Assembly: GCA_048939245.1 (NCBI GenBank)
Contig: JBHLPR010000029.1
Location: forward strand, 1-27,081
DNA: 27,081 bases
Origin: Promethearchaeota archaeon
Lineage (GTDB): Archaea; Asgardarchaeota; Hermodarchaeia; Hermodarchaeales; Hermodarchaeaceae
Reading direction: 5' to 3'
Shown: one piece after another, positions 12,379 through 18,235 of the stretch
Layout of the letters: the number at the start of each line of letters is the position of its first letter
Position numbering within the stretch: position 1 is the stretch's first letter
Program-made: the position numbers and the translations under genes
The notes under the pieces: model-generated
Databases searched by the model: none
Told to the model about the DNA's origin: nothing
Seen by the model: only the letters and a program-made list of their open reading frames with translations

Positions 12379-12507
12379 CTAGCTTGATTTCGGTGGTTTA
12401 AACCACGTGATTATCAGAAATATCAAGATGATAATTAACATTATGAGAATGAAGACTTCGCCCCAGCTTGTCCAAGCTACAGGCGGTGGTTGCCAGGGTG
12501 TTCCCAT
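12379..12507 (-). CDS. 42-aa single-transmembrane peptide (not in ORF track)
   Basis: MGTPWQPPPVAWTSWGEVFILIMLIIILIFLIITWFKPPKSS*; AGGAGG RBS 7 nt upstream of ATG; strongly hydrophobic core followed by K residues; own hairpin/T-tract. Confidence 0.75.
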   Translation of the reverse strand: MGTPWQPPPVAWTSWGEVFILIMLIIILIFLIITWFKPPKSS

Positions 12508-12625
12508 GGTTATCCCTCCTGTGCTTCTAATACTCAAATTCCTTAAAAGGTTTAGCTTTAGCGGGCTCCTAAATATTTAGTTGAGCGAGGTGCAAATCTT
12601 CGTGAAAACTATTGTCTTTTAACGA

Positions 12626-12711
12626 TTTTTTGCATCTTCTGATGCAAAAAACCTCTTTTTCCTTATCACTTCTCGGTATTTTTGTACCTTTCAGCTCCCA
12701 TCGAATAATAT
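12626..12711 (+). promoter_or_regulatory. conserved promoter unit 1: palindrome TTTGCA-N8-TGCAAA plus atttttgYac-N6-gctcccatcgaataatat
   Basis: 11-bp inverted repeat 12626-12636/12641-12651; the 18-mer gctcccatcgaataatat at 12694-12711 is identical to 13217-13234; same spacing in both units. Confidence 0.75.
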
Positions 12712-12788
12712 CAAACAGACGCATATTCTCAATTGTGCTGGGATTCTTACCCAGGATTCCGGTAACACCACAATTGGAGGTATTTGAG

Positions 12789-12929
12789 ATGGTCGAATCC
12801 AAACATAAGCGCAAGAATTTAGCAGAAATGTCGGCAACTGAGCGTGCTGTGGCTGGCTGCCGAAACCCTCATCCAGTAGCTAAGCCACGAACCCGCTATG
12901 CAGTTATGCTGGTTCTCAGCCGACACTAG
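12789..12929 (+). CDS. 46-aa basic peptide, paralog 1 (ERAVxGxxNP family)
   Basis: MVESKHKRKNLAEMSATERAVAGCRNPHPVAKPRTRYAVMLVLSRH*; GGAGGT RBS 12776-12781; homologous to 13288-13410. It is the C-terminal part of track ORF 12612..12929. Confidence 0.8.
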   Translation: MVESKHKRKNLAEMSATERAVAGCRNPHPVAKPRTRYAVMLVLSRH

Positions 12930-12987
12930 ACTGTGAGGAATCCCCATGGTGAAGAAACGATCCCCAGAACCTCCTTGCAGTCTTATC

Positions 12988-13112
12988 AATCGGGCCTACA
13001 CACCCTCCATTCGTGCTCCTTTCCGTTGTTGGGGGATTGGCGTAATAGCAATCCGGCAACGGGTGGACTCACCCTTTGGCTTTTCAACTATGGAGCTTTT
13101 GTGGGCCCGGTT
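12988..13112 (+). ncRNA. putative ~125-nt structured RNA element 1 (3' of peptide 1)
   Basis: 13-bp closing helix aatcgggcctaca/tgtgggcccggtt (2 G-U); nested ctccat/atggag, ccgttgtt/ggcaacgg and ggattg/caatcc; T8 tract at 13147-13154. Strand inferred from G-U pairs and gene orientation. Confidence 0.55.
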
Positions 13113-13151
13113 TATCCACTTCTAAAATCTTGTGATGGTGAAATTCTTTTT

Positions 13152-13234
13152 TTTGCACCCCTCAGTGCAAATGTTGGCAGACTCTCCCTCTTTTTGTTAG
13201 ATTTTTGCACTTATTGGCTCCCATCGAATAATAT
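13152..13234 (+). promoter_or_regulatory. conserved promoter unit 2
   Basis: tttgca-cccctcag-tgcaaa 13152-13171; atttttgcac 13201-13210; gctcccatcgaataatat 13217-13234; spacing identical to unit 1. Confidence 0.75.
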
Positions 13235-13287
13235 GCAATTCTAGAGTTAGGTATCATTGTCTCGCATCAGCGGGACGGTGAAATGAA

Positions 13288-13410
13288 ATGGCTCAGAAAA
13301 AGAAAATTGGTAAAATGGCTGTTGCCGAACGTGCTGTGACCGGCGCTAAAAACCCCAAGGGCACCCCCCGAGATCGAATTAACTTTGCTATCGTAACTTC
13401 ACGACGCTAA
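13288..13410 (+). CDS. 40-aa basic peptide, paralog 2 (not in ORF track)
   Basis: MAQKKKIGKMAVAERAVTGAKNPKGTPRDRINFAIVTSRR*; GGTGA RBS 13277-13281; aligns without gaps to peptide 1 over about 32 residues. Confidence 0.8.
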   Translation: MAQKKKIGKMAVAERAVTGAKNPKGTPRDRINFAIVTSRR

Positions 13411-13467
13411 TCATGCTTACTAGGGATCGACACTCAAACTGTGACACGGATTATAACCACTGACTGA

Positions 13468-13600
13468 AGCCGGGTCTTCATGGTAACCGGATAAAACTCC
13501 GAATCCGTTGTCCAAAAAGGTCCATTGCCACCCACACAAACGGACCGGGAAGTGCCGAAATGGAGGGGAAGAAAATCCTGAAGACCCGGCTGATTTTTTT
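13468..13600 (+). ncRNA. putative ~124-nt structured RNA element 2 plus T-tract
   Basis: Perfect 13-bp inverted repeat agccgggtcttca 13468-13480 / tgaagacccggct 13579-13591; inner ctcc/ggag and tccgtt/aacgga; T7 at 13594-13600. Confidence 0.55.
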
Positions 13601-13811
13601 CGATGAACCTTGAGCGACAAAAATGCAAATTATCTCCCAAAATGATTGCAAAGGAATTCATATGACGTATATCTTACTGAATTCGTGACAATGGAAAGAA
13701 TGCATTCACAACTCCTTGTTTTGTTTGTCTAATAATATGCTCTAAAAAACGACATAACCTCCTAAGAGTAACTTATTTGACTCAAAACTCAATACACTAG
13801 CAGGCTTTACA

Positions 13812-15392: not shown

Positions 15393-16370
15393 TCAGGCAT
15401 CAAGTTGTTTGAAGAGCTGTTCAAAGTAATCATCAATTGGACTCCGAAACACCCTTGTCGGATACCCATAGATAGCATTTGCAGAAACAGCCTCAGATGT
15501 CTGTCGAATCGTTTCGATAATCTCACTCGCCTCGCGCATATGCTCAACCACAAAAACACAAAAAATCTCCGGCTCAAACGCCGACGCATATGCATACCAA
15601 AATTTCACCGGATAATAGTCCTGTAAAATCTTCACAATTTTGGATCTTTGTTGTGTTCCTTCTTCATGTCGAATAATGATTACAAAAGCCGTATATCCTC
15701 CCGCATTCAAATTCCATTGTACAGTAATTTTAAAACAGACCTCACTAGGTCGACTCCCACCCCTCGGCTCCCAATTAATATAGATATTTGGTTCCGATCC
15801 ATTCTCACCAATTAACTCGCCGATTATCTTTCGGATCCGACGAGGCGTTAACCGCGTCTGTTTAGACATATCACTAATCGACATTCGTGCATCCTGATGT
15901 AAACAGCGAAGAACCTTCAGATCTGATTTAGATAACTCACAACGTTTACCCGGCTCAGTGAGTATCGTATGGAATTCCACTCCTTCTACTCCTGGAATCT
16001 GCCGTAAAAACGTACCAATCTCTTGAAGTCCCATAGCCCCGGCATAACTTCCGAAACAAAGAATACTCCCATCGGTCAAAATGCTCGCTGAACCTACCAA
16101 TCTATGTGCTCCTAAGGAGTCTAGGAATGCATCGGATGGAATCGGATCCTGGGTTCGGATGATTGCTACCCAATCTTCCATACCTAACATTGCATTTGTC
16201 GGTAGTAACTGCCCCCCTCGAATGATTCCATCACTATTCAGCTTCTGAATCCGCTTCTTAATCGCATTCACCGAAAGGCTGAGTTTCTTCGCAATCGCCT
16301 GATATGAAGCTCGGTAATTAACCGATAACTCGAAGATTATGTTCTTGTCTACGATATCCATCGACACCAC
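15393..16370 (-). CDS. Lrp/AsnC-family regulator with two tandem HTH-effector modules
   Basis: 'MDIVDKNIIFELSVNYRASYQAIAKKLSLSVNAIKKRIQKL' and a second HTH 'DLKVLRCLHQDARMSISDMSKQTRLTPRRIRK'. Confidence 0.9.
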   Translation of the reverse strand: MVSMDIVDKNIIFELSVNYRASYQAIAKKLSLSVNAIKKRIQKLNSDGIIRGGQLLPTNAMLGMEDWVAIIRTQDPIPSDAFLDSLGAHRLVGSASILTDGSILCFGSYAGAMGLQEIGTFLRQIPGVEGVEFHTILTEPGKRCELSKSDLKVLRCLHQDARMSISDMSKQTRLTPRRIRKIIGELIGENGSEPNIYINWEPRGGSRPSEVCFKITVQWNLNAGGYTAFVIIIRHEEGTQQRSKIVKILQDYYPVKFWYAYASAFEPEIFCVFVVEHMREASEIIETIRQTSEAVSANAIYGYPTRVFRSPIDDYFEQLFKQLDA

Positions 16371-16635: not shown

Positions 16636-17604
16636 TTGGATGAGATTGATAAAGGGATTCTACTTGAATTAGCTGATAACTGTAGAATCTCTTATCAAGA
16701 TCTGGCTACCCAACTCGGCATTACCGTGAACGCTATAAAAAAACGATTTGACAAGTTAGTTGAAAGCGGAGTTATCTGCGGGTTCACTATTTATCCCAGC
16801 CTTGCTATGTTAGAAGCAGATAATTTGGTTGCCCGGATTTATCCAGAAATCCAACCACAATCTGATGAGCTTCTTGATTTAATTGGGTCCAATAGGATGG
16901 TTAGAACTGGCAGTTATCTCGCCGATGGCTCAGTTCTTTGCTTTGCCGATTATCAGGGGAGTATGGGTTTGGCAGAACTTGGAAAATTCCTCAGAGGAAT
17001 ATCTAGTGTTAAGCAGGTTGACCTCCATACAGTAATCTGTGAGAAGGGGAGTAGATGTGAGCTCACGGCTGATGATCTAAGAGTTCTACGTGAACTTAAA
17101 ACCGATGCCCGAATGCCTCTCTCTGAAATTGCTCGAAACACAGGCTTAACTCCCCGACGAGTGCGAAAGAATCTTCTGAAACTTTTCGGTGAGAGTGGCT
17201 CCGGATGGGAAATTGCAGTTGATGAGCAATCGTTTGGTGATCAGCGCACCCGTCAAGCCTGTATGTATTCACGAGTCCTATGGAATCTAAATGCAGGAGG
17301 CGCCACATTTTTCATAATCAGGATATTTTGGAAAGAGGACACAGCAAGCCCACACGAAGTCGTGGCCTGGCTACGTAAACATTTCCCACTTGAATTTTGG
17401 TATGCATATGTTTCAGCTACAGCTCCTGAAATCTATACCGTGTTCATGGTAGAACATCTACGAGATTCCAAACCTATTGCCAGAAAGGTTGGACACCAAC
17501 CTTTTACAGAATCCATTGAGCCGATTTTCGGCTATCCCAGCAAACGCTTCAAAAATATACGCGACTATTTCCTCGAAGAAAAATTTGCCACATTGGATAA
17601 GTAA
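16636..17604 (+). CDS. Lrp/AsnC-family regulator with two tandem HTH-effector modules (paralog of 15393-16370)
   Basis: 'MDEIDKGILLELADNCRISYQDLATQLGITVNAIKKRFDKL' and 'DLRVLRELKTDARMPLSEIARNTGLTPRRVRK'; shares WNLNAGG, FWYAY, VEH and GYP with its neighbour. Confidence 0.9.
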   Translation: MDEIDKGILLELADNCRISYQDLATQLGITVNAIKKRFDKLVESGVICGFTIYPSLAMLEADNLVARIYPEIQPQSDELLDLIGSNRMVRTGSYLADGSVLCFADYQGSMGLAELGKFLRGISSVKQVDLHTVICEKGSRCELTADDLRVLRELKTDARMPLSEIARNTGLTPRRVRKNLLKLFGESGSGWEIAVDEQSFGDQRTRQACMYSRVLWNLNAGGATFFIIRIFWKEDTASPHEVVAWLRKHFPLEFWYAYVSATAPEIYTVFMVEHLRDSKPIARKVGHQPFTESIEPIFGYPSKRFKNIRDYFLEEKFATLDK

Positions 17605-17764: not shown

Positions 17765-17847
17765 TTTGAACCCCGCAGTATAAAATAAAGTGCTTGTGCG
17801 CTCGTTCTTTCGTTTTTTTGCACCACTTTGTTGCCATCAATTGATAT
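17765..17847 (+). promoter_or_regulatory. third, diverged copy of the conserved promoter unit
   Basis: tttgaa-ccccgcag-tataaa 17765-17784; ttttttgcac 17814-17823; N6; gttgccatcaattgatat 17830-17847 (13/18 match to the 18-mer); spacings identical to units 1 and 2. Confidence 0.6.
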
Positions 17848-17923: not shown

Positions 17924-18235
17924 ATGACAGAACAAATAAACCAGAACCTAAGTAATTTCAAAACTTCAAAGAATGGTAGGGCATCCTCGAAGGCTATTAC
18001 TCGACATATTAACCGGATTCTCTCCGTATTACAAAGAGGGACTAGTCGAATTTTCGATCTTGGAGGGGGTCTCGCAGCCCTGTTCACAATTATGGATATG
18101 TGCTTTGTCTGGTATGGTGCATTCTACGGTGGTGGGGCTATCGTTGTCGGCGACACTCTCTTGATGTTACAACTTGAACTTGTGATTATCGGTCCCTTAG
18201 CCTTAGTTTGGATTCTTGCTAAATTCCGTGGATGA
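17924..18235 (+). CDS. small hypothetical membrane protein (2 TM, basic N-terminus)
   Basis: 103-aa ORF with two hydrophobic segments, downstream of promoter copy 3; no clear RBS. Confidence 0.5.
   Translation: MTEQINQNLSNFKTSKNGRASSKAITRHINRILSVLQRGTSRIFDLGGGLAALFTIMDMCFVWYGAFYGGGAIVVGDTLLMLQLELVIIGPLALVWILAKFRG

Follow-up and report, generated by a model that had tools for sequence, protein, structure and literature searches.

The window analysed here, the whole 27,081-nt stretch of contig JBHLPR010000029.1 (assembly GCA_048939245.1, forward strand) from a Promethearchaeota archaeon, carries two small genes in tandem, B and A, that encode the very basic micro-proteins P0001 and P0002. Both open reading frames (ORFs) are genuine protein genes of the expressed type and belong, as its tandem B and A members, to a family of four subfamilies, which is confined to one family of Asgard archaea (Hermodarchaeota-type metagenome-assembled genomes, MAGs) and whose whole conserved core is under strong purifying selection. 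Each gene stands alone as a cassette with a palindromic operator, a half-site, a promoter core, a 5′ hairpin, a strong ribosome-binding site (RBS), the ORF and a folded 3′ RNA tail. To judge from the sequences, the products may be condition-regulated, disordered polycations that take up a fold on binding a polyanion, with RNA or the ribosome as the most likely partner. We favour this reading at a probability of roughly 0.4. A literature search gave nothing on the family, and we regard it as undescribed.

Two tandem genes and their family

A sequence-only reading of this DNA had claimed two paralogous ORFs, and both are present (Table 1). BLASTP aligns P0001 and P0002 over 40 residues, of which 38% are identical, with a single gap of 2 residues close to the C-terminus (E 7e-09). 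The gapless 32-residue alignment proposed by that reading is also correct, with 11 of the 32 positions identical when counted from both sequences, and the C-terminal ends are VLSRH and VTSRR, as it had said. Its claim of an RBS for both ORFs holds as well, the two being conserved and suitably spaced: GGAGG of gene B (12776-12780) lies 8 nt ahead of the ATG and is invariant across 9 species, and GGTGA of gene A (13277-13281) lies 6 nt ahead of the ATG.

How many members of the family does this genome encode? When the whole 2.5-Mb genome was queried with P0002 in six frames, P0001 was recovered at E 0.003 together with two copies on other contigs, P0003 (45 aa, L003:1489-1626) and P0004 (50-53 aa, L004:1486-1647, minus strand). 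A profile scan of every ORF of 25-150 codons, with all filters off, found exactly four matching ORFs, with E values of 6e-23 to 3e-20, and the next best ORF had E 0.56. The description of the genes as unannotated proved wrong. By exact look-up each of the four paralogues has an entry in the public protein collection, for which NCBI is given as source, and close homologues there carry the name "hypothetical protein"; the notion that these genes are missing from public annotation is hereby corrected.

The four subfamilies, A to D, comprise proteins of 40-54 residues, all strongly basic. Subfamily A (P0002 type) has the form ...ERAVTGAKNPKGTPRDRINFAIVTSRR and subfamily B (P0001 type) the form ...ERAVAGCRNPHPVAKPRTRYAVMLVLSRR; subfamily C has the C-terminus ...SRRGSKW, and subfamily D has the N-terminus ALFKKKGKK and usually starts with GTG or TTG. 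A single Cys is conserved in B, C and D, and type A has none. The signature common to the family consists of a Lys-rich N-terminus, the core E-R-x3-G-x-(R/K/H)-N-P and a short run of hydrophobic residues that closes with S-R-(R/H). Over 44 sequences the E, R, N and P of the core are invariant, and the G and the terminal S-R nearly so. The N-terminus is the variable part of the protein and the C-terminal two-thirds the conserved part.

Selection was evaluated on orthologue codon alignments by the Nei-Gojobori method. The median ratio of nonsynonymous to synonymous substitution (dN/dS) was 0.14 in A, 0.11 in B, 0.10 in C and 0.13 in D, at a pooled synonymous divergence (pS) of 0.49-0.67, and the variable columns cluster at the third codon position. 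Among the findings that would speak against it, the sequence-only reading had named the lack of a conserved frame in relatives and a dN/dS near 1. Since the frame is kept and the medians for the P0002 and P0001 types are so low, the result is clearly the opposite of both.

Another small frame was noticed at the C-type locus (L003:1661-1744, contig C79) and at the same place in 7 other species. It is an ORF of 27 codons (26 in one species) with its own GGTGAT RBS, located between the C-type gene and its tail. Its end, ...F(V/L)Y(S/A/T)L(I/V/L)x(S/T/V)RR-stop, resembles the family C-terminus, and the ER..G..NP core is absent. This ORF may represent a fifth, truncated paralogue.

The distribution of the family was surveyed in 400 genomes of the phylum. 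Profile matches occur in 17 of the 18 genomes of the window's own archaeal family (14/14 in genus g1 and 3/4 in genus g2), whose members are MAGs labelled Candidatus Hermodarchaeota, Candidatus Thorarchaeota or Promethearchaeota. Among the approximately 380 other Asgard genomes there was no match except a weak one containing a stop codon. Copies per genome number 1-6, mostly 2-6, and the B-then-A tandem is retained in 8 other genomes with an intergenic gap of 304-361 nt.

An exhaustive HMMER search of 1.84 billion cluster representatives yielded 21 matches, namely 19 true members of 40-77 aa and 2 repetitive artefacts, and no fused or longer form was among them. P0020 (1452 aa, 21 repeats) and P0038 (527 aa) were rejected as members, being repetitive sequences with spurious profile matches. 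The 388-aa "representative" of the 90% cluster of P0001 is an unrelated sequence and a clustering artefact. A viral or mobile origin was rejected likewise, as viral contigs (IMG/VR) hold no relatives and PHROGs gave no match. The sensitivity of all these searches is limited by the short length of the proteins, and more distant relatives could escape them.

Putative promoters, hairpins and RNA tails of the cassettes

The surroundings of the genes, conserved cassettes with operator-bearing promoters and structured RNA tails, had been missed by the sequence-only reading, and we judge them the most important part of the context; they are conserved to the same degree as the genes. In every species the A and B cassettes have one general layout: the palindrome TTTTG(C/A)A(C/T)-N6-(G/A)T(G/T)CAAA, about 30 nt further on the half-site TTTTG(C/A)AC, and then a core with the consensus GCTCCCATCGA(A/T)T(A/C)(A/T)TA(T/G). 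This layout recurs in the D cassettes, with TGAAC as half-site and with GGCTCCCGTGAATATATG. In this genome 12694-12711 and 13217-13234 carry identical copies of the 18-mer core, and a search allowing up to 2 mismatches gave no third one. The distal palindrome of cassette B keeps its position in 10 species, with variant half-sites, and in cassette A the core ends 53-54 nt ahead of the start codon in 9/9 species. By analogy with known archaeal promoters, the core would be a promoter with B recognition element and TATA box (BRE/TATA), and the palindromes would be operators. Of the two 5′ hairpins, that of the B mRNA lies upstream of the RBS, which stays outside the helix, and that of the A mRNA pairs at its base with part of the RBS.

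Table 1. Features of cassettes B and A in the window (strand given as "." for palindromes)
Feature	Position	Strand	Observations
Distal palindrome, putative operator, cassette B (TTTGCAT-N6-ATGCAAA)	12629-12648	.	strict pattern twice in the 2.5-Mb genome, both here; 0 in control
Proximal half-site (TTTTTGTAC) and promoter core GCTCCCATCGAATAATAT (putative BRE/TATA), cassette B	12678-12711	+	core kept in 19 A and B cassettes
5′-untranslated region (UTR) hairpin of B mRNA	12740-12760	+	RNAalifold, 9 species: 8 hairpin pairs, including 4 with compensatory changes
Micro-protein gene, subfamily B (P0001, 46 aa)	12789-12929	+	orthologues in at least 9 species; median dN/dS 0.11; variable columns by codon position 26/22/42
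Structured 3′ tail, cassette B	12986-13120	+	13-bp closing helix and inner hairpins; 34 predicted pairs, 9 compensatory, 8 species
Distal palindrome, putative operator, cassette A (TTTTGCAC-N6-GTGCAAA)	13151-13171	.	one window match against 0 expected; essentially invariant, 9 species
Proximal half-site (TTTTTGCAC) and promoter core GCTCCCATCGAATAATAT (putative BRE/TATA), cassette A	13200-13234	+	conserved
5′-UTR hairpin of A mRNA	13255-13280	+	10 pairs, 3 with compensatory changes, 9 species
Micro-protein gene, subfamily A (P0002, 40 aa)	13288-13410	+	orthologues 70-89% identical; median dN/dS 0.14; variable columns 19/12/39
Structured 3′ tail, cassette A	13466-13598	+	13-bp closing helix GCCGGGTCTTC.../...GAAGACCCGGC, then T-run; 29 pairs, 3 compensatory

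Which protein would bind the palindromes? The micro-proteins themselves might do so as autoregulatory DNA-binding proteins recognising the operators before their own genes; a palindrome with a half-site is present in every A, B and D cassette, and the half-site differs between paralogues (TGCAC in the A type, TGAAC in the D type). However, no helix-turn-helix (HTH), ribbon-helix-helix, AbrB or other DNA-binding family was matched at E up to 10, and the known dimeric DNA-binding folds are longer than the conserved core, which has about 30 residues. Moreover, a promoter of the same build precedes an unrelated gene, and two genes of Lrp/AsnC type lie 2-4 kb away, so that an ordinary transcription factor is the simpler operator binder. 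We therefore give autoregulation by DNA binding a low probability.

That third promoter lies at 17765-17847 of the window. It has an imperfect palindrome TTTTTTGAAC-N6-GTATAAAA followed by TTTTTTGCAC-N8-TGCCATCAATTGATATG, and stands before a 103-aa membrane ORF (17924-18235) with no Pfam match; its similar build suggests a small regulon. The two Lrp/AsnC-type genes, at 15393-16370 (minus strand) and 16636-17604 (plus strand), encode proteins of about 325 aa, each with two AsnC/Lrp-type HTH domains. These proteins are either siroheme-decarboxylase-like, in view of a weak match to the NirDL HTH, or regulators, and they are candidate binders of TTGCA..TGCAA-type palindromes.

The 3′ tails, each about 125 nt long, form the other conserved part of the cassettes. 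Common to tails A, B and C are CGGG(T/C)CT.. in the closing helix and the motif (A)TCCGTTG. No Rfam model was matched at gathering score in the window, and the region 12540-13700 had only chance-level matches (E 0.68 or worse). A further conserved hairpin region was seen between stop codon and tail in both cassettes (12930-12985 and 13411-13465; GACTGTGAGG...CCTCCTTGCAGTC after gene B).

Since the A, B and C genes each come with a tail type of their own, whose helices covary and whose loops are invariant, we can ask whether protein and tail form a pair. Each micro-protein might bind the RNA domain that ends its own mRNA, in a dedicated cis-encoded ribonucleoprotein (RNP) serving autoregulation or yielding a stable small RNP from the 3′ end. 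Two other observations favour such pairs: the duplicated gene A in genome G104 brings its own tail A, and conservation is higher in the tail cores than at synonymous sites of the genes, about 60 nt of tail A being identical in 9 species against a pS of 0.53 in the gene. The covariance model built on tail A (R1) matches once per genome, behind gene A. In genomes G098 and G099 (L021, L022), however, tail A occurs without gene A; it directly follows tail B there, with neither gene A nor an A promoter between. Furthermore, a C-type tail relative of about 160 nt (C70:5617-5778; L042:1618-1779) begins 6 nt past the stop codon of a 406-aa gene of the beta-lactamase family (PF00144), which points to a reusable 3′-end RNA module. 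A second C-type match of about 160 nt lies away from the C gene in at least 10 relatives, the PF00144 gene beside the copy having been read in this genome only. Finally, genus g2 has nothing more than a simple GC-rich hairpin behind the protein gene, and two short hairpins follow the D genes.

Taken together, the C-type tail behind the 406-aa gene, tail A without gene A and the short hairpins of g2 and D indicate that neither protein nor tail needs the other, which argues against an obligate or exclusive pair, and a dedicated cis-encoded RNP appears decidedly unlikely to us. Its bolder form is slightly more doubtful: an undescribed lineage-specific family of small archaeal RNPs, in which each paralogue would be loaded co-translationally on the RNA of its own transcript end, the particle and not the free protein would be functional, and the module would have been borrowed by at least one enzyme mRNA. 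The B-like gene at L021 and L022, which is followed by its own tail and then by the A-type tail, has GARNP in place of GCRNP.

The presence of structured RNA downstream of each ORF also brings to mind a regulatory nascent peptide, whose conserved core of 26 residues (ER to SRR-stop), about the length that the exit tunnel holds, would act there at the stop codon and control folding or processing of the downstream RNA. Nevertheless, there is no downstream protein gene to regulate, genus g2 has no elaborate tails, and four paralogues with conserved basic N-terminal regions and strong RBSs have the look of products made for use. A nascent peptide thus seems very improbable.

Two further explanations of the tails were tried and rejected. 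As mimics of rRNA, the basis of r-protein autoregulation, they were compared with partial 16S and 23S rRNA of relatives, this genome holding no rRNA; the best shared word was no better than that of shuffled tails, and the sole shared 15-mer lies outside the rRNA. As guide (omega) RNA of IS200/IS605 TnpB elements they fail because R1 finds only the gene A copy genome-wide, despite the TnpB element at L004. The 10-mer GTTGTCCAAA shared with the tails is the end of an insertion sequence (IS) inserted in a D tail.

TnpB/IS605 elements (PF01385, PF07282, PF12323) were seen beside D-type cassettes at L004:166-1419 (contig C108) and L025:39-1331. In this genome the D tail is interrupted at GAGTCC| by the IS end (GTTGTCCAAA...), and in another species the IS lies immediately upstream of the D operator.

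Protein character and possible partners

P0001 and P0002 contain 10 and 11 Lys plus Arg residues against 3 and 2 Asp plus Glu, with isoelectric points (pI) of 11.0 and 11.9, in agreement with the K/R-rich character ascribed to them from the sequence. Across the family the net charge is +5 to +12 over 40-54 residues, at a pI of about 11-12. The grand average of hydropathy (GRAVY) is -0.62 and -0.68 for the two proteins. The earlier statement that both have neither a signal peptide nor a transmembrane (TM) segment was confirmed too; the longest hydrophobic run is about 8 residues, too short for a TM segment. A contiguous hydrophobic stretch (YAVMLVL, FAIVT) lies near the C-terminus.

Database comparison gave no relationship. 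Searches of Pfam-A and NCBIfam (E up to 10), PHROGs and PADLOC (E up to 1) gave 0 families with any of the four paralogues, among 177,635 PDB sequences a profile search met only three chance matches at E 0.96 or worse, and the ESM Atlas gave no usable match. One resemblance was examined and rejected. The group II chaperonin (thermosome) segment ...V(E/T)GCKNPKAV... resembles the family's vtGCrNPhpt over 10 residues, yet this GC(K/R)NP motif scores only 5.6 bits against the thermosome of the same genome and E 1.6 in PDB, which is chance and not homology.

Structure prediction, one of the checks proposed by the sequence-only reading, was done by AlphaFold2 with family alignments. The mean predicted local distance difference test (pLDDT) was 63 for P0002 and 57 for the D type, and in both models a short helix covers the ER..G segment, the NP motif falls in a loop and another helix lies at the C-terminus. 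No confident autonomous fold is predicted for either of them. Such low-confidence models with short helices are usual for peptides that fold on a partner, as small basic ribosomal and RNA-binding proteins do.

If the products have no stable fold of their own, then on what do they act? In the reading that we favour they would act through a polyanionic partner, most likely RNA, either the ribosome or some other structured RNA. Affinity would come from the basic N-terminus and specificity from the ER...G.RNP turn with the C-terminal segment. A transcription factor reading the TTTTG(C/A)AC half-sites would switch synthesis and the 5′ hairpins would tune it, so that synthesis would probably be condition-specific rather than constitutive. 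The 3′ tails would then be lineage-specific transcript-end modules and not obligate protein partners. The RNA-, DNA- or ribosome-binding function claimed by the sequence-only reading is compatible with our results and stays putative.

Several observations weigh against this reading. Even at E up to 10, no similarity to RNA-binding, DNA-binding or ribosomal families was found in Pfam, NCBIfam and PDB. A core ribosomal role is disfavoured by the narrow lineage and the several paralogues: core ribosomal proteins are broadly distributed and usually single-copy in archaea, and a family present in 17/18 genomes of one archaeal family at 1-6 copies, mostly 2-6 paralogues per genome, is unlike them. 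By sequence, the PDB profile search gave no relation to any r-protein family or solved-ribosome chain. The tails have no rRNA-like segment in comparison with the partial 16S/23S of relatives, which leaves classical r-protein autoregulation by mimicry without support. Moreover, the hydrophobic C-terminal stretch would also suit docking onto a protein.

The last point leads to the possibility of a small accessory subunit or regulator of a protein complex, in which this stretch would add a strand or helix to the partner and the basic N-terminus would be a flexible tail. The contiguous hydrophobic segment ahead of SRR is conserved, no autonomous fold is predicted, and the 27-aa ORF behind the C gene shares only the C-terminal module, all of which would fit. 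On the other hand, a pure protein-protein adaptor seldom carries a net charge of about +10 on 45 residues, and no conserved neighbour gene suggests a partner. We consider a protein-complex subunit unlikely.

The gene neighbourhoods differ from paralogue to paralogue. In the window A and B are flanked by a C25 peptidase gene and a membrane protein gene; the former is divergent, 0.5 kb away and not syntenic in other species. Gene C adjoins a PF00144 hydrolase gene, and the neighbours of gene D vary with the species among 2-hydroxyacid dehydrogenase, major facilitator superfamily (MFS) and GNAT genes. None of the four subfamily loci, in any genome, has a gene for a modifying enzyme, a transporter or immunity beside it.

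These neighbourhoods bear on whether the proteins could be precursors of ribosomally synthesized and post-translationally modified peptides (RiPPs), secreted antimicrobial peptides or type I toxins, as the small genes, the single conserved Cys in B, C and D and the highly structured mRNAs, like those of hok-type toxin genes, might suggest. Besides the missing enzyme, transporter and immunity genes, there is no signal peptide or TM segment, and the negative GRAVY values differ from the hydrophobic membrane-spanning peptide expected of a type I toxin. The would-be core of a RiPP is conserved and not hypervariable here, with the leader/core pattern reversed, and the A type has no Cys; PADLOC and PHROGs gave no match and there are no viral relatives. 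The sequence-only reading had judged a RiPP precursor less likely, which our comparison of all loci bears out, and we assign these peptide and toxin roles an almost negligible probability.

Two observations concern other genes. Divergent from cassette B lies a 52-codon ORF (12379-12537, minus strand) whose product is rich in Trp and Pro at the N-terminus and contains a single membrane helix rich in Ile and Leu. Two relatives (L015, L072) carry it at 79% identity, and Pfam gave no match. In one relative (G106, contig C71:619-4212; L079) the 16S rRNA match spans 3.6 kb against a model of 1.48 kb, which suggests large insertions or introns in the 16S rRNA gene of the genus.

Significance and comparison with known systems

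No known organisms are closer relatives of eukaryotes than the Asgard archaea, whose small proteins and non-coding RNAs have hardly been explored. The micro-protein family described here is clearly delimited and strongly selected, and it comes with a regulatory architecture that is conserved and with RNA elements that Rfam lacks. New here are the four-subfamily structure, the dN/dS figures, the exhaustive family size, the annotation status, the operator comparison and the three observations that uncouple tails from proteins. Should the proteins prove to associate with RNA or the ribosome, one Asgard group would have added them, as a lineage-specific feature, to its machinery for translation or RNA handling; otherwise a well-documented orphan family remains. 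Four peptides of 40-50 residues and three RNAs of about 125 nt are cheap targets for binding and structure work, for which no culture of the organism is required.

How does the family compare with known systems? Small, very basic ribosome-associated proteins include Sra/RpsV of E. coli (45 aa, induced in stationary phase) and the archaeal/eukaryotic eL39, eL41 and eS30. The present proteins are like them in having 40-55 residues, a pI above 11, no independent fold and a strong RBS of their own, and like Sra in their presumed conditional expression. They differ in having no sequence similarity to these proteins (Pfam, NCBIfam, PDB) and in being restricted to one archaeal family with 2-6 paralogues, and their ribosome association is putative.

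At the level of the transcript, a short ORF with a conserved, covarying RNA domain behind it, closed by a U-tract, recalls the small-protein mRNAs with structured 3′ ends and the 3′-UTR-derived small RNAs, such as bacterial CpxQ, SroC and DapZ. In contrast to those, the present tails are archaeal, about 125 nt long and multi-helix with invariant loops, and one tail type also stands behind an enzyme gene. The tiny ORF within an elaborately folded monocistronic transcript with 5′ and 3′ elements resembles type I toxin mRNAs (hok/sok), whose products are membrane peptides; here the products are hydrophilic polycations without a PADLOC match, and no antisense gene was met, though no search was aimed at one.

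The family has no homology to the micro-proteins of Haloferax and Methanosarcina, many of whose characterised representatives are zinc-finger micro-proteins; its own members have at most one Cys. What it shares with the archaeal micro-proteins detected by Ribo-seq and proteomics in these two genera (for the approach see PMC7261190) is the combination of conserved small ORFs of fewer than 50-70 codons and restriction to a lineage.

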